A stretch of 63,294 nucleotides of DNA, the filler included, from Basidiobolus ranarum (lineage: Eukaryota), in assembly GCA_040143965.1 (NCBI GenBank). It is 21 parts of 21 records of this genome, joined end to end, with 100 filler letters (N's around TTAATTAATTAA, not from the genome) between each part and the next. Parts side by side here need not be neighbours in the genome. Positions count along the whole stretch, not along the records: positions 21,188 to 24,109 come from JASJQH010002863.1; 20 more parts are not named here. One strand, 5' to 3'. This document shows positions 16,778 to 48,645 of this stretch, piece after piece. The notes beneath the pieces were generated by a model, which had not been told where the DNA came from, made no database searches, and saw only the letters and a list, made by a program, of their open reading frames with translations. Position 1 is the stretch's first letter. The number at the start of each line of letters is the position of its first letter. A program made the position numbers and the translations under genes.

Positions 16778-18063
16778 CCCTTAAAGAAACTTGAGGATTG
16801 TTATTGTAGGAAAACAGTCACAATTTTAATCCATTTGGGGTTGACCATTTACTTACCATCATAAAATTGTCATGTTATATTTGATTTTAATCAATTTTTG
16901 CAGTTTCAAGAGAGAAATTTCAAGATCTCACCAAATAGTTGCATATGTTTGGCTACAATCTCTGAAAACTATGGATCACACATGTGCAAAAAATATAACT
17001 CATATTTTACACAATTACCACTTGAATGCTAATTTGTCACCTTTGAAATCCCTGGTCTCTTGAATACATTCTCTTGAATATTTTTCTAGAGTTCTTCACA
17101 ACCAAGGTTTAGCTCATACCCAATATGAGTTTGTATCAATATCTCCAACAAAGCCCACCATTGTATTAATGTTGCTGAATCAACATTCTTCCAGCTATCT
17201 GGCAGATACCCTGAAATATTGTGCCACTCTGTATTAAATTCTTCCCAGATATCTGCATGGTCAACACCAGACTGAATGTTGAGTTGAATGTTCTTCTTCT
17301 GAAGCCACTTTCTGCATACTTGCACTTGGTTTTTCCCTTCATACTTTTAAAAATACTCCTCAAGCACTTTGACTATTTTTGTACATCCTTGTAGTGTGAC
17401 ACTCCTGAGGGTGCTTTGTGGTTTGTGCAGCTTTTTGCTTGCCTTTACCTTTGGGACTAATTTCAACACTTTGAAAAGTACCACTTGAGGTTGGAGAGCC
17501 ATGAGTTTTATTTGCTGGTGTTTTGGCCTGCTGAGAGGTGCCAGGTGTTGTATAAACTTCCAAGTTTAGCACTCTTCCAACAGGTGTACCCAGTTCCATG
17601 GTGAAAATAAGCTTTTTTGCCAGTATACCTGACTCTGGATATGCAGATCTTTGTAATGGTGTGAAGAATTTGGTAAGTGGGACAGTAGACCTCAAACTTG
17701 CTGGCCCCTTTGCTTCCCCCTTGGGTTAACTAACTTCCTGCTCCTTCAGTACTTCTTTAGCTGCTTTTCTTTCTTTTCCAAGTTGATAATTGTATACATT
17801 TTTGAGATGTCTCATGAATAGGCCTATGCTAGCCAAATTGCATCTGCTTGCAAAAACCCAGGATAAGCCATTTGAAATAAGTCAAGAACTTTCAGAGTAA
17901 TGTCTGGTTTTTGGTTTTTCCCCAATTGGCTCAAATCCAGGTTATTTTGGGCAAGATTCCACACAGTTTCCAAAATGTTAAACCACTCATCATCAGAGCA
18001 AGTGATGGCAGCTCCAACATTCAGAGTCTTTTGGTTTGCAGGTTTTCCTATGAGATTTCTACT
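16778..18063 (-). mobile_element. CCCTA/CMC transposon left end with 3' half of accessory gene
   Basis: Starts CCCTTAAAGAAACTTGAGG (variant of CCCTAACAGAAATTTG); minus-strand ORFs STVPLTKFFTPLQRS... and VCRKWLQKKNIQL...TLIQWWALLEILI. Confidence 0.8.
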
Positions 18064-18163: not shown

Positions 18164-20200
18164 TTGCTTTATTTCTGGACAATAAACAATTATCTCACAC
18201 AGCTATTCACAACTCCACTGTTCTAAAGTTCCTCCAAGCAGCCCATATTTTCCCAATAGTTTATGAGCCCCATTTTCAAACCTTTACAGCATGACAGAAA
18301 CCATCACTACCACTTTCATTAACTCAAGTGTTGACAAACTTGATTGAAAAAGTTACAATTTCAGGAAGTTCAAGATGCAAATCATGCTGGCAAACAGAGA
18401 GCTTTGAGAGGTAGTCTCTGGCGATGAAAAGGAACCTTCTGACTCTTCTTTATTGAAAGCTACAAGAAAAGAGACAAGAAGGCCTTAATGTCAATTGTCA
18501 AAGTTTGAAGGACTCTCAACTTATGAATATTCAATATGCAAAGACTTCCCATCAAGCTTGAACTATACTGGAAGAGTGTTATGATGCAAAGAGTCTTGCT
18601 AATAGACTCTTTCTCAGACAAAAACTCTTCAATATAAATATGCAAAAGTCTGAAAGCATGGTTACTCATATTGCAAATGTGAGATCTTTAGTGAAACAAC
18701 TGAAAATATTGGTGCTACTTTACAGGAAGAAGATGTCATTATTACTTTTCTACTTAGTCCCCCAGAACAGTATTCAAACATGATCAGAGCTTTTGAAGCA
18801 AGTTCTGACAGGCTATTTTAGGAGTTGGTGATGGCAAAACTAATTGATCAACATCTCAGAAGTAAGAAATTACAAAAAGAATCTGAGGAAGTGGCTCTTT
18901 TTGGAGCTGGAAAATGTAGCTTCAGTAGGTACATAGGTTACAGGAGAAGGAAACCAGGTTTACACTGAGATTGTAACAAACCAGGATACCAGTTTAAAGA
19001 TTGCAAATCAAGATATTACAACAAAAATGAGAAGTCAGAACAAGCAAATGAGGTTTCAGCCAAAAGGAAGTTTTATTCATTTCTGCCCTATCAGTGATGT
19101 CTAAAGAAGACTCTAAGACATGGTATATTGATTTTGGAGCCTCTCAATATTTCTCTAATCAAAAAAACTGGTTTAAGAAACTCAAAACTGACATGAACAA
19201 GCAGGTTGGTATGGGAGATGACTGGCCACTAGAAGCTCTGGGAGTGGGAGAAATTGAAGTGGACTTTGGGGCATCCCTGGGGACATGTATTTGACACTGA
19301 AAAATGTGCTGCATGTGCCTGTGATAGCAAAATATTTGTGATTAGTTAGTAAAGCTATATCTGAGGGATATAGCTTTAATTTTGATCAAAATAGCTGTAC
19401 AATCAGGGATCAAAAAGGGCATTATGTAGCTTCTGGAGCTAAGCAAAATAGCTTGTGTAGACTTCATTCTATTGGGCCAATATAGGAACAAGTTAATACT
19501 GCCACAGCTGATGAGACCGACTGGAAAATCTGGCATAGGAGAGCAGGTCATCTAGGAGCTGAAAATATTAGAAATTCAATCAAATGCAAGATGGTTTTGG
19601 GACTAAATTTTGTAAATCCACCAGATTTGGAGCTAAGTGAATGTTGTCTATATGATATGCAACACAGACAGCCATTTGAGGGCTCTGGAATGAGCACAAT
19701 TGATCAAAATTTGGGCCTCATACACTCAGATCTATGTGGCCCAATGCAGACAAAATCCTTAGGCAGAAAAAGGTATTTGATGACTTTATTGTTGATAAGA
19801 CAAAGTATACTTGGGTGTACTTTCTGGCTAGTAAGGAAGAAGTCTTTGATACCTTCACAAAATTTGAAGCAATGGTGGAGACTGAAACAGGTCTAAAGAT
19901 TACAATTATCTGTACTAATAATGGAGGGGAATATATCTCAAAACTCTTCTCTAACTTCTGCTCAATGTGTAGGATAAAACAGCAGACTACAGTGCCTATT
20001 CCCCACAGCAGAATGGAGTAGGAGAGTGTGCAAAAAGATCAATAATGAAAAAGGCAAGATCAATGCTTCATTATCAAGATTTACCAAAAAAGATCTGGGC
20101 TGATTTGGTTGCAACTGCAGTATATATTAGGAACAGATGTGCTTCTAGGTCTCAATTGGCTATGAGTTCTTATCAAGCTTAGTTTGGAAGTAAACCTGAT
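18164..20200 (+). mobile_element. Ty1/copia 5' half (PBS, gag, protease, integrase), degenerate
   Basis: PBS variant GTTTATGAGCCC (~18259-18270); KFKMQIML, WYIDFGAS, LIHSDLCGPMQ, TNNGGEYIS; truncated after GSKPD by a CCCTA element. Confidence 0.9.
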
Positions 20201-21087
20201 CCCTAACAGAAATTTGAAGATTGTTATTGTAGGTAAACCATCACAATTTTAATCTATTTTGGGATTGACCATTTACTTGCCATCATAAATTCTTCAAGTT
20301 AAATTTGATTTGAATCAATCTTTTCAGTCTCAGGAGTGAAATTTCAATATATTTCCGGTAATGGATGGCAATTTTAGTGTATCACAAGCGGTTTCTAAGC
20401 ATTACATTACACCAAGTTTACCATCTGAAAATTTCAATGCCATCCAAAAAGCATTCAAAATTTAAATCAAAATTGGCTTCCAAGCCAAAGCCTGCTGGCA
20501 CAAAAGGAAAAAAACCAGCAAGAACAGAGGACTTGATTGATGAGCAGTCTAGCAATCCACTATCCACTATGGAAGGCATTAACATGCCAGAAACTAACTC
20601 AAGTAATGATGAAGCATTGATCAATTTACCAGATGTGTTTCTTTCAGCAATAGTGCAAGTGAAGAGATTATAATCCCCCAATTATGCGGTATATCCATAG
20701 TTGAGCAAAGTTTGACCAAAGCACTGTCAAGATCATAAGCTTCCAAAATGGCTACTTTGCCCACTACTGAACAACCCTCTGTAGAAAATTTGGATAGAGT
20801 TATTACAACAAGGGATTTTCAGGCAGAACACCATAATGATTTGTATGAAATCCTATGCAAAAACTATAAAAGTTGCTATAGAGGCCATGACAAGCAATAA
20901 CACTGCAATATTGCAATTAATCCAGTGTTTTGAAGCAACTAGTCAATAGTTAGAGAGTCACTCAACAATGATACAAGACCTTCAGAATGCTGTACTTGAG
21001 CTACCACAACATGCTGCTCCCTCCAATGATTCTCATATGGGATTTCACTCAATCCCACACCATACATAGGAATGTTGCCATGACAAT
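20201..21087 (+). mobile_element. CCCTA/CMC left end joined to 5' part of accessory gene (rearranged or nested copy)
   Basis: Starts CCCTAACAGAAATTTG at the copia break; ATG at 20437 gives MPSKKHSKFKSKLASKPKPAGTKGKKPARTEDLIDEQ. Confidence 0.8.
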
Positions 21088-21362: not shown

Positions 21363-22581
21363 TGCTTTGTAATATATCACTTTGGATATCACACAAAGTC
21401 GGTTACAGCATTTTTACAATATTTGTATGTCAATATAATTATTTCTTAAGATTGTACAATGGGTATGTGGATCCTTAAGAATGGCATCAATAATACTTCG
21501 CATGAATGGACGATTATAAGCGTAAACTGTTTAAAAGCGTAAGCTATAAAAGTTAGTTTAATATCAAGAGCTTGAGTTAAACTTGAGTGATAGGCCAGTG
21601 ACTGGATTCGATATCTTCTTGATGCCACATTCGCGTTTCTCGCTTGCTATCAAAGTTCGAAGATTTGGCTGGGAAAACATGACGAAGTTGTTGTGCTTGC
21701 ACATGGTGAGATTAGTGCCCAATAAGTGGTTATTCGATTCTTTCTGGTTACTTGATAGATTGTGTTGCATAATGCTCGTGTACAACTTGAAAGATTGTGT
21801 ATCAAGGTAGTGTCATCGGAGTACAAGATCCATGAATCGATACTTGTCTGGTACAAATGGCAGGAAAGAATCATGATTGGTTCCCAAGTATGTTCACACC
21901 AAAATTGGCTGTACCATATATAACCTATTAAGGTAGGGAATCGATTCGCGGTCATTCATTGTTGCGCAATATCTTGATTATGAAATATTGTAATGGATCT
22001 AGGGCAACTTGTTCTAGGTATAGAGCACCAGCATCGCTAGTATATATATCTGTGCTACTCGAGCATTGCTTACATGTATGGAAAGAACAACTTTATGTCG
22101 TGATAAAAAACTCCATCTATCAATAAGTAGATTTCTGCCAGTGACACACAAACTAAATTATTATGCCACGGGAGAGAGGGGAGCAGCCATGATATAGAAA
22201 AGTAGTTAAAGTGAACAGATACGATATCATCGAGCTCTAAAGAGAAGATAGTGGTTGGTCATCTTTATCAATCCTAGGCTTGGTTTCTTTTGCAATAGAG
22301 TATGCCCATTATGGAGAATATACTTATTAAATGGTAATTCTCGCGGACGGAAAATATGCATGTTATCTACGATTATGTTGACGGAATGACTTGTACCGAT
22401 TCTGAACAATGTAAATATACAGTTTGAAGATCAGTATCCAGTGATATTTTTACTCAAGTGGTAACACACCTTTACACAAAATATATTTGGTAGCCAGTGA
22501 TCAATTACTATATTAGCTACATGGTGGGGCTTCAGGAGTTATAAGAAGGAGGCAACTCTTGAGTAATCTTCATTCCACAAA

Positions 22582-22878
22582 ATGGTTCGCATCAACCTCT
22601 ACGCTATAGCTGCTGCGCTTCTCTGTACCTCCGCCTATGCTAGTAACTTTGTAGCTTACTCTGGAGGTCATTATTCTGGATCTAGCAAGAGCATTGGAAA
22701 GTGTGGCTGCTCTTCCATTCCCTACAGAGGTAGTTACAAGTGGTACGCTGAGGGCCAAAGTGGACGTGTCTATAATGGATCCGGATGTAGCGGAGCCGCC
22801 CATTCCGTATTAAAGAGTGATGCAAACTCTGAGCAATCATCCAGTTATGGCTGGAAGAGCATCTTCATTGTTTGCTAA
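22582..22878 (+). CDS. Secreted MiAMP1 (beta-barrelin)-like antimicrobial peptide
   Basis: Intact 98-aa ORF, ~20-aa signal peptide, KCGCS, GQ..VYNGSGCSG.AH and C-terminal GWKSIFIVC as in Macadamia MiAMP1; TATA-like TTATAAGAAGG upstream. Confidence 0.9.
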   Translation: MVRINLYAIAAALLCTSAYASNFVAYSGGHYSGSSKSIGKCGCSSIPYRGSYKWYAEGQSGRVYNGSGCSGAAHSVLKSDANSEQSSSYGWKSIFIVC

Positions 22879-23834
22879 GTCCAACTATTTGCTTATGGTT
22901 ATGAAGGCATTATCTTTCTACATATTCGCCTTTGATTTTTACAATCATTGACTCAAGTATACTACTAAATATCAAGTGAAATTAAGTCTTAGAAATATGT
23001 TATCATACTAGCTTTAAATTTGCGTATATCTGAATAGTAAAAGCATATCTTCAGGTACTTTCAGCCCATAAAGAACAAAAGAAACTGATGTTTCCACTTG
23101 ATTTGAAAGTGTACCTCATTTATGCCATCTCAATTATGACAATTCTGAATTCATTAACAATTAAGCACAACCGTACATTTCACAGATTAAGTTAGTATTA
23201 CGATAGTTTTGAATACAAAAAATACCCATATTAATATCATCTATCAATACCAGATTCTGACTAATGAATAACAACGAAGATAGTCTCTGCGGGAAGTTGT
23301 GTCATTCTTGTGGTAGCTTTGCAAATAAATATTTAAATAGACGTAACAGGAGTCATTTTGCTACGCCAAAGACTGAAATACATGTGTAAGGTGTTTTGAA
23401 AGTAAAACCTATTGATAGTCAGCTGCTTATCGTATTCATGTAACTATCCACTGTGTTGCTTGGTGTTTGCCTCATGATTTTGATGTATATTATCGCTATA
23501 TTTCTTTTCTTGTACCTCTAGATCATTTCACTACGCTGTCCTAAGTTTGAGTTACGCGAATCATATTAATATGGAGCTGTGGGAGATAATACTGACGGTG
23601 CAATTCCACAAAGCTCATCTTTAGACTACGTGATGTGAAAGATAGGTGGGAAATAATGACAAGTAAGGCCAGCATTTCTCGTATTACAGATAAGAATAAG
23701 ACTACTATTAAGTCATTAAGTGCACTCAAATACTAGTGCTAAAGTAGAATCGTTGATCTTTTTTGCTACTATAGTATATGACTGATATGAAAATATGACT
23801 GTTCGACGATAATACTCGATGGGAGGTTTTTACG

Positions 23835-23995
23835 GCTTCTGAAAAACGTAAATATACAGTTCGAAGAAGAATATGAAGCGATATTTTTGCTTAAGTGGCA
23901 GCATAAGATATATTTGGTAGCGAGTGATCAATTACCTTATTTGCTACATCGTGGGGCTTTGGGAGTTATAAAAGGAGACATCCCTTTGGTAATCT
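23835..23995 (+). promoter_or_regulatory. Diverged duplicate of the MiAMP1-like gene promoter
   Basis: Collinear with ~22400-22570 (GTAAATATACAGTT, ATATTTGGTAGC, AGTGATCAATTAC, GTGGGGCTT, GGAGTTATAA, GTAATCTT). Confidence 0.8.
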
Positions 23996-24109
23996 TAGGG
24001 GGGGATGAAAAGCACCAGATGGTGTAGACTTTATTTAGCTTATATACTAATCTAAACAAAGTGACAATCAAGACATCAATCTTTTAAGATATTGTGTCAA
24101 TACTGAATC
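23996..24109. repeat. Dispersed repeat end, possible hAT terminus
   Basis: Starts TAGGGGGGGATGAAAAGCACC; reverse complement of 13050-13162 and 56920-57030. Confidence 0.65.
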
Positions 24110-25464
24110 NNNNNNNNNNNNNNNNNNNNNNNNNNNNNNNNNNNNNNNNNNNNTTAATTAATTAANNNNNNNNNNNNNNNNNNNNNNNNNNNNNNNNNNN
24201 NNNNNNNNNTTCCCCCGATCAACCCTATAAAAATAGCACCATCGAAATAAAATTAATCAGTCAATTTATCAGTGAATCAAGTCCCGAAATTGCACTCACC
24301 TCAGGAACCAGCCACAATACAAGTGTCAGGAATCTGATTTCTCAAAATCAGAATTCCTAAGGTGAAATCGGAAATCCGATTTCCAGGTTTATACAGTACT
24401 AAAGTGCCACGTAAACTTGATCCACCGAACCGTTTTCTGCCATCTTTTCACACAATATGTATTGACCATCAGGGCAACCTGCAGTTCATATGCAAACTTT
24501 AACCTTCAATGAGTTTCAAATTCAGATTTGACAAAACCAATATTAATAAGCTCATATTTCCATTATTGAGTAGTGAAACATCACAGATTTTTAGGTAGAT
24601 ATTTTCCTACTTCAACTCTATCACAGATATAAGTTTCGAAATGAATAGATATTGGAGTCAGAATTTACATCCGAAACAGGTCACCACTCCTCAATAGATA
24701 TTATCAAGATAGATATTTAGCTTTAAGCAGTAGATAAAGTTGCCACCCGGAAGATTTTTATAAACAGGCTCAATTTCAATTCAATATAACAACGTATAGC
24801 TCTGTTATACAGATAACTTGTCAAAGAGTAAGCTTGATTTGTTTGTAAATATCAGCAGAAGTGAATCAATGAGTTTCGGTAACCTCTCTTTCAAGCAAGC
24901 AGCATATGTTTTAGCACAATATTACTCTGAATTGAGGTTCATTCCACTTAGATTCAGCAGGATGGTGCTGGATAAACAATATATGAGGTATCTTCAATTA
25001 GAAAAAGTTGTGCAAACTAGAAGTGGTAAAATTGTAGGCAAAACTATCATTGCTCTTGATATGCTTTCGATACTAATGTAGTTACAACTCAAATTGTATT
25101 TACTCGCTATGATGAGTATTAAAAAAATATCACCTCGATAGATCTTTTATATTTAAATAATCACTCCAACCTCACGATGAAAACATCGCTGAATCTGTAT
25201 TTAGAGATTACATAGAAGATAAACTTACTTTACTAAAGTTAGTGCTAAGTAGTTCTATTAGTAAACGATGGTATCATTTTACATTACTAAGAGTATAGTG
25301 AGCATTATTATGTTTATGAAGCTGAAATATCTACGTATGGATAACGCTCCCATACGAATTACAATGCCTGAAGAAACTATACTGCTTGTATTTTCTTTCA
25401 TTCCAAAATTTGAAATATCTTTGATGCAATTGGGCCAGTCACGTGAAACTGCTTTCCTATGCCA

Positions 25465-27130: not shown

Positions 27131-27479
27131 NNNNNNNNNNNNNNNNNNNNNNNNNNNNNNNNNNNNNNNNNNNNTTAATTAATTAANNNNNNNNNNNNNN
27201 NNNNNNNNNNNNNNNNNNNNNNNNNNNNNNAACACAATTTGTCTTAATGTTAAAGACAAATTGCTAATTCAATGTTCAAGAGCTAAAACTGCCAAGAAGG
27301 TACGGAAAGCCTTGGAAGACACCTACCAAACAAGTTCTGCTCCCAAATACTTTAACAGTATTTTGCTGTAGCTCCAGTACAGCATTCTGAAGATCTTTTA
27401 TCATTGTTGAGTGACTCTGTAACAGTTGACTATTTGCTTCAGAATGCTGCAGGATTATTGCTTGTAAAGGCCTGTTAAG

Positions 27480-27966
27480 CAACTTTGTAGGTTTTACTTA
27501 TGAATTTGATACAGAGTGGCACAATATTGCAGGGTATCCACCAGATAGCTGAAAGAATGTTGATTCACCAGCATCAATACAATAGTGGCCTTTGATGGAG
27601 ATATTGATAAAAACTCTTGTTGGATATGAGCCAGACTTAGGGTTTAAAGAACTTTGTAAAAATATTCAGGAGAATATATCAAAGAAACTAGGGACTTCAA
27701 AGGTTACAAGTTGGCATTGAAGTGGTGAATGTGTACAATTTGAGTTACATTTTTTGTACATGTGTTTATCCATAGTTCTCTGAGATTGTAGCCAATCATG
27801 TGCAACTATTTTGCAAGAGCTTGAAATTTTAATTTTGAAACAGAAAAAATTGAGTAAAATCACATCTAACTTGAAAATTTTATGATAGTAAGTATATGGT
27901 CAATCCAAAATGGATTGGACTTGTGACAGTTTTGCTACAATAATAATCCTCAAATTTCTGTTAGGG
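27480..27966 (+). mobile_element. CCCTA/CMC accessory gene 3' end and terminus, nested in another copy
   Basis: Ends CTCAAATTTCTGTTAGGG; flanking DNA resumes inside the accessory gene (PIEPSSLENLDRTITT). Confidence 0.8.
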
Positions 27967-42345: not shown

Positions 42346-45230
42346 TCATACAGCCGTGGCAACTGCAGCAGAGAATTGACCACTATGGCTAATTGTTACT
42401 TTTATATTATTGATCCCAATGGCCTTGGCAGTTTCTTTTATCAGACCATGAAGAATAACCTCCGGCGCCCCACTTTCACTTACCATGATTTCAATATGCT
42501 GAAGTGGAGCACCAGCCCCTTGATCGAGTTCCTTCAGTAGTGACCTTTTGCTATCCGGAGCGAATGATGAGATTGCTTTAAAAACCGCTTCTTTTGCCGA
42601 CCATCTCCCAGCAAAGCTTGACTGGGGATCTGGACGCGATTTACAATAGATCTGTCCAAAGTCGGTAAAGTTGCGTTCGAAGAATGTTTCTGAGGACATT
42701 GGAATTGCTGACACAAGCTCAATGTCCACTCCTACTCCGTATTCGGTTTTATTCATAGATTTGGTCATGTCTTCCATCATAGTTCTCATTTCAGGAACAG
42801 ATTCATATTGCTTGTCGGATAGTCCGCTAAAAGCCTGGTCGAAGGTCCAGGTATTCTTGGTCGGACTGAATGCTGCGCGTGCATTTGGATTCAAGTAAAC
42901 GTTGCTTTCTTGTTCTTCTGTATAAGGTGGGCTGTTCTTTACTTTGACAAAAGTGTCACCAGTGAATGTCTCGTGGAAGTATCTGTATACCTTATGTTGA
43001 CGTTGGGTCATCAAGGCTTTGTACTCCTCGAAGACGCTTTCTTCGATAGCACCAAAGACATAGTCTGGATGAATGACCAAAACTTCACCTCCGACTTGTC
43101 CGAAACCGAATGATTTCAAAAACCCGGCCTTGATTCCTCCTATGTGTACACTCTTGTTGGGGAAGTAGAGGTGGGAGAACTTTTGAAGGTTTGAATCGAT
43201 GTTATCCGCGTTCCTATTAATGAAATCAGCCGCAATCCTATATACAAAATCGTAATATGGTACACATACCTATTTCCTGGAACAATGCCAGTTTCGATGT
43301 ATTGTAAGACACCGTTAAGCATCCAAGCAGCTGCTGCTCCCTTTCCGTGGCCAGTCAAGTACTTTTGGCAAACAACAGGGCAGGCGTTTCCATGGGTACG
43401 CCCAAGATGATTGAATTGCTTATTAAACACATCACATTCATTTTTATCATTGGCTTTTGTTCCGGTTCCATGAAGAGAAGCAACCTAAGTCAAAGAATAA
43501 GCAAATGATTGACGCTTGTTGGATATATTCGGTATACTTACCCCTATATCATCAATTGTAAGTCCAAACACGGCCAGTGCTCCGCGAAGTGGTGAAATTG
43601 ATTGATCATTCTTGTAGAAATGATTTCCCCAGGTACTTAGCATCTCCTTTTCTTGCTTCTTTGCCTCGGAGTTTATGAAATCGGTGCGTTCCTTCAAGAA
43701 TACCTCAGCTTCTTGTGGGTAATTCTGTCTGATTGACTGGTATTCGTAATTCATGTTTTCCAGCTCGCTCTCTACCCAGCCCTTAATCTGCAGGCGACGG
43801 TAGCTAATCTGTCTGGCACGATAGTGGAAATTCAACTTTGGTGATGGTACTCCAGTTTCTCGAGCAGAAGTCAAAATTCCTTGTCCAGGTGCTGGCACCG
43901 AACGTCCTTCCTTATCCGTAGCAGTGGCACTGTGTGCAATAATTCCATAGATTGGTACTCCCATTTCAAGAGCAAGCTATATATATTGTTTAGCAAGTTG
44001 ATGTTTGAAAAGCTCATAATCTCTGATTTACCTTGGCTGACATCAATATCTGATGACCGGCCCCCATAGACTCCATGAATCCTCCACGGCTAGAGGTCGT
44101 TGGCCGAGACATTTCTTGTGGCTCGCGTCCTTGCTCGAGCTCCTCAATTGCATTACTTGTAGCCTTCATATTGGCGAATTCAAACGATCCCTCCTCTTGG
44201 AAATCATCATAACCACCAACAACCACAATCTTTGCCTTTTCATTGAGAATGGTATCAATACCAATGTCCACGGATTCAACTGCTGTTGCACAAGCGCCAA
44301 CAGGTGTCTTTACTGGACCGGAGGAACTCAAAAGTAACAAATTAACCCAAGCAGGCTAAGAATACTCGATTAGGTACTATATAGGAGAGATGATTTTCAA
44401 ATTTTCTTACCATTGTGTTTACAAAACTCTCTTGCATAATATCCATCTGAACCGGCTTTTCCATAAATCGATCTTTGTAGATAGCTCTGTTAGCTAGCAT
44501 GGCCCCAACACCTCCTCCAGACGTGTTTCCGAGCTCAGATACATGGATATATTTGTAAAACTCATATGGATCAGCTATACCAGATCTCACAAGTGCCTCT
44601 ACAGTTGAAACCAGACAGTAGAGTGTAATGGGATCGACTTGTTGAATGATATCCTGTGGAATACCTATTGTCGGGTTAGTATAGCTTTGAAATTGATGGA
44701 AATTTGGAAAATGTACCATAACGCTCGGCACTCCATCCAGTTGGAATTTGACCAGCAACCAAACGAGAGAATCTGAGAGCCTTGGGTACGTAGATCGTGG
44801 CGCCCTTTCTGAGGAAAACAGTCCATTGGCCGGTCTTTTGGTCCTCAAAGATATCAACATTCTTTCCATGTTGCGACTTAAATTTGGCCGCTTCCTCAGC
44901 ACTTGCTTCAAACGGCGGTAGCTCATGGTCCACAATTACTTCTTGAAGCATTGTCTTCTTCTCTGGGTCGTAGCCATTGAAGAGTTCAGGTTCTAGAAGA
45001 TGTTTTAGCTAAGAAATACTCTTAATAGGTACTATTCGAACTTACCAATTAGCCTGATCCCAGTATGCTCAAGAATCTTCTTTTCATACTTCTCTTTGAT
45101 TTCAATATCACGTAGAGGCTGGCCAGTTTCGCCATCAAGCCATCCAGAGAACAATTTTCCGTCTTTAGTCTGCTTGTATCTAACATATTTGATGAAACCC
45201 ATGATCCAGGCCATCTCAATACATCCCTCT
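42346..45230 (-). CDS. FAS2: Fungal type I fatty acid synthase alpha-type region: ketoacyl synthase and PPTase; multi-exon, 5' end cut
   Basis: [59 protein letters not shown], PPTase GVGVDIE...[12 protein letters not shown]...ISHS. Confidence 0.97.
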
Positions 45231-45330
45231 NNNNNNNNNNNNNNNNNNNNNNNNNNNNNNNNNNNNNNNNNNNNTTAATTAATTAANNNNNNNNNNNNNN
45301 NNNNNNNNNNNNNNNNNNNNNNNNNNNNNN

Positions 45331-45441
45331 ATCTTGTAATTCACTAAGATATTATCAATTATTCTCAATCGGAATTTACTTAGAATATTTTTACCAACTT
45401 AGAAGTTCTCAGATATATAGATTTTTTCAAACTTGTGCTAG
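45331..45441 (+). repeat. copia LTR type A internal fragment abutting a host ORF
   Basis: Matches ~11680-11783 up to ACTTGTGCTAG. Confidence 0.85.
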
Positions 45442-48243
45442 CGCTGAATTTGAATTATTTTTCTTACTTGTTCAATTTCGTTGTCCGATTCGGTTTCCTT
45501 TTTTGCTACCGTAGTGTTAGCAAATAGTAGAGAGTTGACTTTGGAATTCTTAGGTTTGTCTACAATTTCGTCATGCAATCCTTTATGTGCACGTTTCCCG
45601 TAAGTGAATCTGGATTTGACTTTCTTTGACCATCTTTTTCCGCTCTTGTCATCATGCGACCCAACCACACTCGGCCCTCCGAATATGCCACTTAAAGCTG
45701 CACTCTTGGATTGTTTAGAACCTTGAAGACCCAGAATCTGGTAAATGTGATAATTGGGCCCGGAGAAGCAACTTTTAGAGGGGTGTAATGACTGTGGCGC
45801 AATTCCTATACTAGAACCAATTGCATTTCGTGTGCTGAATGTAGACGCTTTCGCCTTAAGCACTTGATGTAAGCGCGACGTCAGTCGCATGGATCTTGCA
45901 GTGGTGATTGAACTTGGCAAAGGATTTGGGAAGTAAGTTGGAAGATTATCATCAAGAAAAGGGCCTAGCTTATGCTGAAGGGAGCATGTTGAGGCCAACG
46001 CTCGAGCTCGCGGTAAAGGTATCCTAATTTCAGAGAATTAATACGTTGATGTTAAATAACATATTGTTTAGTTGCTTACCATGTTCCAAACAGTTTGCTA
46101 TCCGCTTTTCTAACACGGACTCGTCCAACCTCAAGACTCAATACTATGGTTCGCTCACTTTCTGTCTCCATGCCACCGGCCATAAGCAACTTGGTTCCAT
46201 TGATATAGCCTGAGTCGAAACGCCGCATAAGTTGAATCATCTCATTATTACCATACCCTTTGGATATGTAAGTTACATACACAGGAACAGACTCGATGAC
46301 TGTCATATATATAGATGGCGTGGTAAGAGTCTGCGTGGGAATGAAAGATTTCCTTTCTCCTATTGTAGGATTATCACTTTCACTTGGTGAAAGTGTTACC
46401 GAGTGGGATGAGCCGCTCCCATCCAATTCATGCTGCTTATCTACAACATTCTGCTCTTCGTCATCCTCATCCAAGCTAATATACGTATGTGGATCTATAT
46501 CGTTAACATGACTTGCAATACTGGAATCCACTGAATTGGTATCCGCAGTTTGGACTTCGGAAATCATTGTGACATTGCAGGGATCTGGTTGGCATGGAGT
46601 TTTGCTGTTTTGATGATTTTCCTGTGAGAGACTATATTCTGCTACTGCATTCTGCAATACTCCGCTTAATTCCATCAAGTGTTTATCCATTTCCGAAGGA
46701 TCAAAAGAAGATTCAAGGTCTAAAATTGAGAGTCGGGGTAAATATGTATAGCATAAATTAACGTTCTTTCTGTTACGTACCATGCCGTTCACCTAAAGGA
46801 TCGGTGCTCAATAACTTTTGGATATGCGGTACGTTTTGCATCCCATACTCTTCCACCAAATGACGAGCTCGATCCAAGGAAATCCTATTATAATAGAATT
46901 GCATAAGATTCGTGTACTTTTAAAGTGAATAATATAGGAATTCTTCTAGAAACATACCAAACTCCACGACACTCCACTGGCCCATTTCGTATCACAACAA
47001 ATCGAGTGTTCCCATCATCGCTTTCGAATTTACCATCACCGACGTACGGCTGGGCAGCTTTTCTCAATAGACTAGCATTACAGAAATCCTTATGACGGCT
47101 CTCTTCAAGCATAACTTGAGACCTTTTTTGCCCCTTGTCACCTTTATTTTGAGAACTAGCACTGTCAAAAGGAACATTTGAATGAAACCGCAACAGTCTA
47201 AGTTGCGTATCTGGAAGAATAGTCTCGTAAACTCTGACATTCGAGTAGACCTTGGCAACCACCATAGGGGCTTTATCTTCTGTATCAATAAGCATTGGAT
47301 ACGACTCGTTGAAAAGTTCAATACCTTTCATAGAAGTGTTTTTGATAGCAGTGTCCTTCGGAACGTACATCGTATCACCTAAGCAGGTCTGGTCTACAGG
47401 ATTGGTTCCAAAGACCCCCTCTTGAGAGAGGATTGAAGAATCATCTGACGACCTACTGTCGATTTCCATTTGAGTAACATCCGCTTTAGTATTGAAAGAG
47501 CTAATGTCGTTCTCAGTGATCTCATCTTCGCGTGAGGGAACCTTATGATCATGGTTTTCTTCATACCTGGCAAATTCGCGGAACGGAGTTCGCTTGATGG
47601 TACCTTTCTTGCGAGTTCCAAAGAGTCTCTTTGGGCTAGAATCGTGTATACGAGGGGAACCATTCAATAGTTCATCTAATTCTGATACTGGCATAGTCTC
47701 AGGGTTGTTCAGCTCCATTAAAGGAACATACGATGAGTTCTTAGTGATTAAGGATGAATCCTCACCAAATTCATCTCCAAAATTTGGTATTAGATGAGTG
47801 TCAAGCTCTCGCTCAAATAAAGATGTGGTATCAGGAGTCAAAAGGCTCGCTTCTGGAGCCAAATCTGACCCATTTTCTTTGTGAATAGGGGGATCAGGAG
47901 TTACTGTCAACGAGGCGGCAGTGGGAACATCATACATGGGGCTATTCACTGGATTAGATTGTGATCTTTGAAATGGTGGTGAGGATGACGTGTCTGGATC
48001 TTGAATTAGAGTGGAGATAACGTCATCGTCAATACACAAGTCCCCATTCATCATTTCTTCAAAGTAATCACTAAATTCGGCATCACTAGATAAAGTCAAG
48101 GAGGACTTAGCCACTTCATATGGTTCTACTGTGATAGCATTTAAAATGGAGTCATGTGAAGCATACCCTCGATCAAAAGAAGGGATACTATTTTCTAGCG
48201 TAGAGAGACTACTAACAGCTTCGTTATTAAATTCTTGCTCAGA
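45438..48243 (-). CDS. Protein with two APSES/KilA-N-like domains; multi-exon, 5' end cut
   Basis: Domain 2: VPVY..LMRRFDSGYINGTKLL..LFGTW/IPLPRARALA; domain 1: YSNVRVYE..LRLLR..FCNASLLRK..CRGVW/ISLDRARHLV; introns 46885-46957 and 46024-46079, plus one near 46720-46780. Confidence 0.8.
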
Positions 48244-48645
48244 NNNNNNNNNNNNNNNNNNNNNNNNNNNNNNNNNNNNNNNNNNNNTTAATTAATTAAN
48301 NNNNNNNNNNNNNNNNNNNNNNNNNNNNNNNNNNNNNNNNNNNAGCAGCGGTTACTGTGATTTCATTATGCAAAATATGAATCTGTTGGGAGAAGCCCAA
48401 AGTGAATAGATATAGGATATACTGTCATTATATGATTACCAGTAAAGCTTTCTAGAATCTTGGAGAATAATATAAGCAAGTGATCCATCGTTGAAGCTGA
48501 TCTCAAGAAATATTCTAAATTTATTAAAAACATCTAATTTAATAGGTCTATTCCTGCACAGCAGTTTAATCTATATCTATTTTTATGCTTTAAATAAGCA
48601 TATTTAAACCTTAACCTGATATCTACTGGTGCCAGATGAAGGTTA

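Follow-up and report, generated by a model that had tools for sequence, protein, structure and literature searches.

A MiAMP1-family gene in the fungus Basidiobolus ranarum, placed by sequence with actinobacterial rather than plant relatives

How does a fungus come to carry a gene for a peptide of a family first described in plants? The question is raised by a short open reading frame (ORF) at positions 22,582 to 22,878 of a stretch of Basidiobolus ranarum DNA, a joined window of 63,294 nt whose coordinates we use throughout. A preliminary description of this frame had read it as a fungal homologue of the Macadamia antimicrobial peptide MiAMP1 that lacks one disulfide and that possibly arrived by transfer from a plant. 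Our analysis confirms the family and leads away from the plants. Taken as a whole, the reading we favour, and to which we give somewhat better than even chances, is that of a native, intact and intronless gene for a secreted, cationic and likely antimicrobial peptide, a gene that passed long ago between actinobacteria and early-diverging fungi.

The gene itself is simply built. An unbroken frame of 98 codons runs on the plus strand from an ATG at 22582 to a TAA at 22876-22878, and nothing independent speaks for the antisense frames of 52 and 77 aa that overlap it. Mature residues are numbered here from the first residue after the predicted signal peptide.

22582..22878, plus strand: complete single-exon coding sequence (CDS) of a MiAMP1-family pre-peptide (ORF list, PF09117 match, 97/98 identity to P0001)
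22582..22641, plus strand: predicted signal peptide, residues 1-20 (sequence features, 1C01 alignment, low model confidence, outside the Pfam match)
22642..22875, plus strand: mature 78-aa domain with 8 predicted beta strands (AlphaFold2 model, Foldseek, cysteine positions, charge)

As read from the sequence, residues 1-20 pair a hydrophobic core with a basic residue, Arg3, and have small side chains at -3 and -1, with predicted cleavage after Ala20; in the BLASTP alignment, residue 21 of the precursor falls on the first residue of the MiAMP1 chain of PDB entry 1C01. An extra cysteine lies at residue 15, within the signal peptide.

The encoded protein is a true member of the MiAMP1 (beta-barrelin) family in a fungal genome. 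It matches Pfam PF09117 (MiAMP1) with 54.7 bits against a cut-off of 26 (E 1.2e-14), residues 21-98 covering the profile from 1 to 76 of 76, and at E<=1 Pfam offers no other family, PF03995 (Peptidase inhibitor I36, SMPI-like) being unmatched. A phmmer search of all PDB sequences returns 1c01_A at E 1.5e-12, the other matches being antibody chains at E>0.05. An AlphaFold2 model built from a 58-row alignment has eight strands, with a predicted local distance difference test score (pLDDT) of 91.2 overall, 98 in the mature domain and 60-68 over the signal peptide. In a Foldseek search of the PDB with this model, 1C01 comes first (E 2e-5, TMt 0.91, root-mean-square deviation (rmsd) 1.2 A, 38% identity), followed by lens and microbial beta-gamma-crystallins at E 0.03-0.2; a structure search of the ESM Atlas is headed by a plant MiAMP1 cluster (TM 0.82), and a resemblance to Inhibitor_I36 appears there at the fold level only (TM 0.64). 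The domain is thus predicted to be a single beta-gamma-crystallin-like double Greek-key barrel of eight strands. Both the profile check against Pfam and the structure-prediction check that the preliminary description had proposed come out in its favour, and its account of an intronless, intact two-disulfide beta-barrelin in a fungus is borne out by the ORF, the PF09117 match and the superposition on 1C01. A UniRef cluster that includes the B. ranarum protein carries the label 'Lactococcin 972 family'; we reject this label because NCBIfam returns nothing even at E<=10, and Pfam at E<=1 returns PF09117 alone.

The host, by sequence, is Basidiobolus. The translated frame is identical at 97 of 98 residues, and in length, to the B. 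ranarum hypothetical protein K7432_014793 (P0001), the single difference falling at position 10, within the signal peptide. Its CDS has 47.5% GC and 45.5% GC at third codon positions (GC3), close to the catalase exon (46/48) and the phosphopantetheinyl transferase (PPTase; 43.5/43) of the same window, and far from the actinobacterial homologues, whose median values are 65.8% GC and 94.9% GC3 (n=44). This host-like composition excludes bacterial contamination; plant contamination is made very unlikely by the B. ranarum match and by the tree placement described below.

Side by side with MiAMP1 of Macadamia integrifolia, the peptide shows both close kinship and consistent differences. Its mature cysteines stand at 21, 23, 49 and 78, the last being the C-terminus of the ending GWKSIFIVC, just as first described; the MiAMP1 chain (PDB 1C01, P0081) has cysteines at 11, 21, 23, 49, 64 and 76 and ends GWKSIFIQC, so that the ending and the C64 numbering first given for it also agree with the deposited chain. 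(A preprint citing the nuclear magnetic resonance (NMR) paper gives the first bond, in the part of its text available, as Cys11-Cys65 (10.1101/127746), where the deposited chain points to 64.) HMMER and BLASTP alignments set MiAMP1 C11 opposite Tyr11 and C64 opposite Ser66, with the remaining four cysteines in register. The query therefore has four of the six cysteines of the three-disulfide arrangement (C11-C64/65, C21-C76, C23-C49), keeping C21-C76(78) and C23-C49 and lacking C11 and its partner, as the preliminary description had it. Both precursors have a leader, in the query a predicted signal peptide, ahead of a mature part of about 76-78 aa, and the mature N-termini align; the query matches the full length of the profile, its predicted fold superposes on that of MiAMP1 (TM 0.91), and both peptides are cationic, with a calculated isoelectric point (pI) of 8.98 and a net charge of +3.6 for the mature query against 9.08 and +4.6 for MiAMP1. 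Unlike MiAMP1, the query shows 41% identity with a 2-residue gap (BLASTP), a loop longer by two residues, a fungal host and a place in another clade, and it contains a motif that MiAMP1 lacks: the pattern [YFW]xxxx[YF]xG, which is the classical crystallin Greek-key signature, occurs once, at mature residues 6-13, where it is made up of Tyr6, the aromatic residue 11 and Gly13. A regular-expression search of the mature peptide for the Ca-binding double-clamp motif N/D-N/D-x-x-S/T-S, as quoted in the available text of 10.1101/127746, found none.

Is the missing disulfide, then, a loss peculiar to this gene? We aligned the mature domains of the family in 99 rows, leaving out 14 of 98 proteins (the near-identical P0001 and P0005, two spurious matches, one long fusion and nine fragments) and keeping 14 of 44 actinobacterial loci, described below, as representatives (30 left out). 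The cysteine states are distributed as follows.

C11 present: 32/99 rows (17 named plants, 14 unnamed, Ramicandelaber)
The four-cysteine pattern of the query: 21/99 rows (7 named actinobacteria, 4 Mortierella, Stephania, 8 unnamed, the query)
Only C21 and the C-terminal cysteine: 46/99 rows (15 named actinobacteria, 31 unnamed)

C11 is limited to the 32 plant-type rows and absent from the other 67, so the missing C11-C64 bond is not a specific loss, and the six-cysteine state defines a plant subgroup rather than the Pfam family. The statement that the peptide 'lacks exactly one pair' holds as a description and falls as a claim of special loss; judged from the alignment, the absence is the common state outside plants and no peculiarity of the query gene. 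An aromatic residue occupies position 11 in 36 of 46 two-cysteine and 11 of 21 four-cysteine rows, Gly13 being nearly invariant there, and the plant C11-C64 disulfide, as aligned, occupies the site of the crystallin tyrosine corner. The loop before the final GW motif counts 12 residues in 40/46 two-cysteine rows versus 10 in 23/31 six-cysteine plant-type rows, and this two-residue-longer loop, like the GSYKWY strand, is common to the query, the two-cysteine actinobacterial rows and the Mortierella rows; the query and many actinobacterial members end in IVC, most plant-type rows in IQC. By alignment, then, the non-plant branch differs from MiAMP1 in a longer loop before GW, a GSYKWY-type strand and an aromatic residue replacing the C11-C64 bond, and within that branch C21-C78 and C23-C49 both appear to be retained in the fungal members, and in most actinobacterial ones just C21 and the C-terminal cysteine. 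Some two-cysteine rows carry another local cysteine pair: the actinobacteria-like P0017, P0025, P0034, P0039, P0055, P0063 and L042 have a close-set pair (NC..N..C) at the site of C49, which suggests a different, local and independently evolved disulfide.

These relatives come from an exhaustive phmmer search of 1.84 billion cluster representatives, which returned 65 proteins at E<=1e-3, 27 of them at E<=1e-10; 53 of 58 aligned members match PF09117 on their own at E<=1e-3. Two candidates for multi-domain relatives, P0043 and P0057, were rejected as long Ig-domain or simple-repeat proteins with many short matches. The named plant members come from Macadamia, Amborella, Macleaya, Papaver, Spirodela, Anthurium, Colocasia, Picea, Pinus, Taxus and Cryptomeria; the named fungal members are four Mortierella proteins and one protein of Ramicandelaber brevisporus; and proteins of Streptomyces, Actinomadura and Nonomuraea are already titled 'MiAMP1 family antimicrobial peptide' in NCBI. 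The view that the family is known mainly from plants is therefore right for the literature, whose reviews, in the parts accessible, present MiAMP1 peptides as defence proteins belonging to seed plants and a few monocots, and wrong for the databases.

The bacterial side was covered in two ways. A locus scan of prokaryotes, with one genome per species and the single pattern GW[KR]SI[FL]IVC from a 14-row alignment, gave 54 pattern matches and 44 confirmed actinobacterial loci (Nonomuraea 17, Streptosporangium 11, Microbispora 4, Streptomyces 3, Herbidospora 2, Sphaerisporangium, Rhizohabitans and Kribbella 1 each, and metagenome-assembled genomes 4), a sample biased to one subgroup, and no census, because a single pattern was used. 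In an unbiased search with the PF09117 profile, 7 of the 401 genomes sampled across the class carried a member, as did 15 of the 201 sampled from the Streptosporangium family and none of 14 controls. The best pairwise match to the query is a Streptomyces protein, 57% identical over 82 residues in a gapless alignment that reaches the signal-peptide cleavage region, and actinobacterial relatives reach up to 58% identity. These bacterial proteins resemble the query (57-58% gapless over the whole mature domain) in loop length, GSYKWY, IVC and the aromatic residue 11, and a signal peptide precedes their domain, as predicted for the query; they differ from it in having mostly only the C21/C-terminal pair, usually Ala at position 49 and a GC3 of about 95%, set against 44% for the query in this comparison, and in being bacterial Sec substrates. 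A separate Streptomyces group has four cysteines but a short loop. A literature search for functional tests of actinobacterial members found none.

Among the fungi, whose Mortierella and Ramicandelaber members are entered in NCBI as hypothetical proteins, the Mortierella proteins are small and secreted-looking like the query, and share its four-cysteine pattern and long loop; at 30-40% identity and with acidic sequences, both they and the Ramicandelaber protein differ from it. The latter (P0086, from a kickxellomycete) has six cysteines, a short loop and a very long branch within the plant-type clade (compare the unnamed P0061). It is fungal, small and secreted-looking like the query and, unlike it, stands among plant-type rows, so that by sequence it would represent another fungal lineage of the family, distinct from that of the query and more promising as a link between plants and fungi. 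The flowering plant Stephania cephalantha presents the converse case: neighbouring tandem genes on a 50-Mb contig, Scep_025459 and Scep_025462 (P0004/P0005), encode copies without C11 and with the long loop, which fall among fungal and unnamed four-cysteine rows, not with the plant MiAMP1s. Both gene models extend past the usual C-terminus. As their sequences stand, the Stephania copies may be an acquisition of a fungal- or bacterial-type gene by the plant, or an assembly contaminant.

Phylogeny places the query with the bacterial rather than the plant relatives. In the main tree (IQ-TREE, LG+C20+F+G4, 99 rows, 80 columns, unrooted, with a bootstrap that had not fully settled) the query groups with Stephania, P0002, Mortierella and P0006/P0007 at a weak support of 38-39, and a node supported 73/97 unites this group with 43 rows of actinobacterial type, 15 of them named and 28 unnamed; across the tree, beyond the Streptomyces four-cysteine group, which adjoins the plant-type clade in the unrooted tree, stand the 32 plant-type rows. 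In a reduced tree of 88 rows, from which 11 long or truncated rows were removed, the eukaryote-like group, in which query and Mortierella stand together, has supports of 75/78 and 77/81; joined to one actinobacterial clade it reaches 78/62, and the whole 46-row clade of actinobacterial, fungal and unnamed rows 93/94. For a crystallin-outgroup root we judged 78 residues at fold-level similarity too little to be trusted. The query falls outside the plant-type clade in both trees, and when it is constrained to join the 32 plant-type rows the tree is 20.1 log-likelihood units (lnL) worse and is rejected by the approximately unbiased (AU) test (p-AU 0.0085). The proposed phylogeny of homologues, in other words, turned against the plant-fungus transfer that had been suspected. 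A second constraint, which unites the six named fungal rows (Ramicandelaber among them) to the exclusion of the named plants and bacteria, is 27.3 units worse, at a borderline p-AU of 0.056 that does not amount to a rejection.

On this evidence the query appears to belong to a non-plant branch common to actinobacteria (Streptosporangiaceae, Streptomyces, Kribbella) and early-diverging fungi (Mortierella and the unnamed eukaryote-like rows). Common ancestry with the actinobacterial branch is supported, and a plant donor rejected, at the level of sequence and tree; the most likely history is that actinobacteria and early-diverging fungi exchanged the gene by transfer long ago. The direction was probably from bacterium to fungus, since the sequence diversity is larger on the bacterial side, the eukaryote-like group is nested in the reduced tree and the gene has no introns. 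Whichever way it ran, the event is old, because identity does not exceed 58% and base composition is fully host-like. After transfer, the gene would have adjusted completely to the base composition of its host. Such a history would fit what is reported for the genus. Tabima et al. 2020 (PMC7466969) put candidate transfers from bacteria at 2-5% of the gene models in Basidiobolus and rank Actinobacteria third among the sources; 61% of these candidates have no introns, and in GC they do not differ from fungal genes of the same scaffolds, though overall they differ slightly but significantly from all fungal genes. The same source singles out Basidiobolus and Mortierella as fungi with secondary-metabolite genes of bacterial clades.

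Several observations weigh against the reading we favour, and we set them out together. PF09117 is rare and patchy among actinobacteria too, as the counts of 7/401 and 15/201 genomes show. In the actinobacterial neighbourhoods inspected (2 of 44 loci, 19 ORFs) there is no conserved immunity or export partner, only unrelated enzymes. The closest eukaryote-like relatives, P0002, P0006 and P0007, carry no taxon names, and the assignment of the host rests on one protein match rather than on marker genes. The trees are unrooted and built on 80 columns, with weak support inside the joint clade (38-39, and 78/62 for the nesting), and they do not fix the direction of transfer; the plant-type row set of the AU test was delimited from the finished tree, the hypothesis itself having been stated beforehand. 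The p-AU of 0.056 for all fungi together makes a single old fungal origin possible. Finally, the query's clade mates are acidic (pI 4.8-5.9), which means that a cationic mode of antimicrobial action would not be a trait of the whole clade.

The alternative that survives best makes the gene an ancient fungal one, inherited vertically in Basidiobolus, Mortierella and Ramicandelaber and lost in Dikarya and most other fungi, with actinobacteria, and perhaps plants, having gained it from fungi, or with a family that is older still. Named homologues do occur in three early-diverging lineages, the query stands with Mortierella and unnamed eukaryote-like rows rather than within one actinobacterial genus, and its host-like composition, the rarity of PF09117 in actinobacteria and an all-fungi grouping that is not rejected at 0.05 all agree with such a history. 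It sits poorly with the mere handful of fungal sequences among 1.84 billion representatives, set against dozens of divergent actinobacteria-like clusters, and with the Ramicandelaber protein, which lies in the plant-type clade at a distance from the query. In the reduced tree, moreover, the eukaryote group falls inside the actinobacterial diversity (78/62, 93/94), and the query is intronless like most Basidiobolus transfer candidates. We regard an ancient fungal gene as unlikely, though with a real chance of being right.

A bolder version of the bacterial origin can also be drawn, which we offer only tentatively and think rather doubtful. The whole MiAMP1 family might be a bacterial invention, a one-disulfide, crystallin-like secreted peptide of actinobacteria that moved repeatedly into eukaryotes: by a fungal route to Basidiobolus and Mortierella, by a plant route, via Streptomyces-like four-cysteine forms, to the ancestor of the plant clade, and as a fungal-type copy to Stephania. 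The cysteines would then have risen from 2 to 4 to 6, the last bond replacing the ancestral tyrosine corner, and if this were true the Basidiobolus gene would be a living intermediate of the series.

Regardless of the route by which it arrived, a plausible course of action can be sketched for the product. The signal peptide would be cleaved after Ala20, two disulfides would lock the barrel, and the peptide would be secreted, both secretion and disulfide formation being predicted from sequence; as a stable cationic peptide, it would bind a cell-envelope component of competing microbes, and so would inhibit their growth in the gut, dung or litter habitat. An antimicrobial role by envelope binding, drawn by analogy from the characterised plant members, is one we consider modestly probable. 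In the available parts of the sources, the antimicrobial activity of MiAMP1 and the glucan binding of the pine homologue Sp-AMP3 are summarised (10.1101/127746, PMC7476358), and Sp-AMP3 is described as binding beta-1,3-glucans and deforming hyphae (10.1101/127746). The peptide could instead have some other extracellular job known from single-domain beta-gamma-crystallin-like proteins: it might inhibit proteases (compare family I36), serve in stress or in the spore coat, or act on an animal host. The fold is, after all, common to Inhibitor_I36 and microbial crystallins (Atlas TM 0.63-0.67, and the Foldseek crystallins), the clade relatives are acidic, and for MiAMP1 itself 10.1101/127746 calls the mode of action undetermined. 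Yet the query matches PF09117 only, even at E<=1, lacks the Ca-binding motif of crystallins and, as MiAMP1 does, carries a net positive charge, and the sole PF09117 members characterised in the literature accessible are antimicrobial; we hold such another job to be improbable but worth keeping in view.

A transfer from plant to fungus, in which Basidiobolus took up a plant MiAMP1 gene and later lost the C11-C64 disulfide, is by comparison very improbable. Its appeal lies in the first description of the family in plants and its treatment as a plant family in the accessible parts of reviews, in a C-terminal motif nearly identical to that of MiAMP1, and in the Stephania cephalantha copy, which is close to the query (45% identity). 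Against these stand 41% identity with a gap to MiAMP1 versus 57% without one to the Streptomyces protein, the IVC ending in place of the plant-type IQC, a position outside the plant-type clade in both trees and the rejected constraint, and the Stephania copy is not plant-type itself. The weakest explanation, that the frame is plant or bacterial DNA co-assembled with the fungus, is barely credible: small cross-kingdom genes are a classic sign of contamination, but the 63-kb stretch around this one bears eukaryotic genes and transposon fragments, its GC and GC3 are like those of neighbouring coding sequence (GC3 some 50 points under the bacterial homologues), a near-identical protein is on record for B. 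ranarum in NCBI, and no plant or bacterial sequence in the searched libraries is more than 58% identical, so that the refutation by contamination that the preliminary description had allowed for finds no support.

Beyond the peptide gene, the window holds a catalase exon, a piece of an SBF (bile-acid/sodium symporter-family) gene, the PPTase and transposon fragments, and it is rich in transposon remains. These features, with those just upstream of the gene, are listed here.

22540..22545, plus strand: TATA-like hexamer TATAAG, 37 nt 5' of the ATG (read from sequence)
22350..22570, plus strand: 5' flank with a diverged second copy downstream (repeat search, pairwise alignment, blastn)
27131-27230: N-run pair inside the catalase frame
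42349-43269: PPTase
19486-19893: gag-pre-integrase fragment (profile search)
59341-59949, plus strand: integrase-core fragment, under the Pfam cut-off
60427-61422, minus strand: tnp2-type (Transposase_21) transposase frame
17000-17241 and 27502-27743: inverted repeat, 242 nt, 83%
20923-21016 and 27356-27449: inverted repeat, 94 nt, 85%
20201-20262 and 27905-27966: inverted repeat, 62 nt, 84%

The TATAAG hexamer is a possible core promoter. It sits within the duplicated block, whose second copy at 23789-23996 (75% over 222 nt, 79-87% in cores), 1.43 kb downstream of the original, keeps TATAAA. No MiAMP1-like coding sequence follows this second copy, only a 7-codon frame (24110-24209 being masked), and tblastn within the window finds no further coding copy besides the gene itself; the second flank may be a tandem-duplicate relic or a small repeated promoter element. 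The inverted-repeat pieces, probably two oppositely oriented copies of one transposable element as judged by sequence, flank a stretch of about 10 kb in which the peptide gene lies along with the catalase exon and the symporter-family piece. Adjoining the PPTase, the minus strand of 43485-48291, the most GC-rich part of the window (40-42%), has long open frames of 467, 238, 199, 197 and 163 aa with no Pfam match, which are probably one large intron-split gene of unassigned family. Forty runs of 44 N, paired around TTAATTAATTAA and spaced about 3.0 kb apart, resemble inserted masks rather than assembly gaps.

Part of this was already known: the B. ranarum protein is public with a precomputed PF09117 label, and the actinobacterial members have been named after MiAMP1 by NCBI. 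The literature on MiAMP1 found within our scope, which did not extend to subscription papers such as Manners 2009, deals with the family in plants and with look-alikes at the level of the fold in Dikarya and Dictyostelium, and in the parts of it accessible we found no bacterial or early-fungal sequence homologues. MiAMP1, PF09117 and IPR015201 are all missing from two supplement files of Ciach et al. 2024, who surveyed 44 genomes for transfers into early-diverging fungi; the candidate tables of Tabima et al. may already list the gene. The look-alikes of Dikarya include Ecp4 and Ecp7 of Cladosporium fulvum, other fungal beta-gamma-crystallin-like effectors as well as the killer toxin WmKT from yeast, which are secreted and have the same fold, predicted or shown; Ecp4 is reported, in the available text of 10.1101/127746, with the cysteine spacing of MiAMP1. 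Ecp4, Ecp7 and WmKT are tied to MiAMP1 solely by structure prediction and HHpred, whereas the query is a family member at the level of sequence, and neither the Ecp4/Ecp7-type effectors nor WmKT are among the sequence matches to it.

The finding leaves unchanged the accepted view of how such peptides work, and the sequences were already public with the right Pfam label. What it does change is the range of the family, which is wider than plants and takes in actinobacteria and at least three early-diverging fungal lineages, with a disulfide number that climbs from one to three across the groups. In this context, MiAMP1 peptides provide a small and tractable case of an antimicrobial-type gene common to several kingdoms, and the natural two-disulfide scaffolds offer a means of asking what the third disulfide of the plant peptides gives to stability or activity. 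For Basidiobolus, a gut-associated fungus able to cause human disease, the gene adds a secreted peptide to the likely bacterial acquisitions of the genus.

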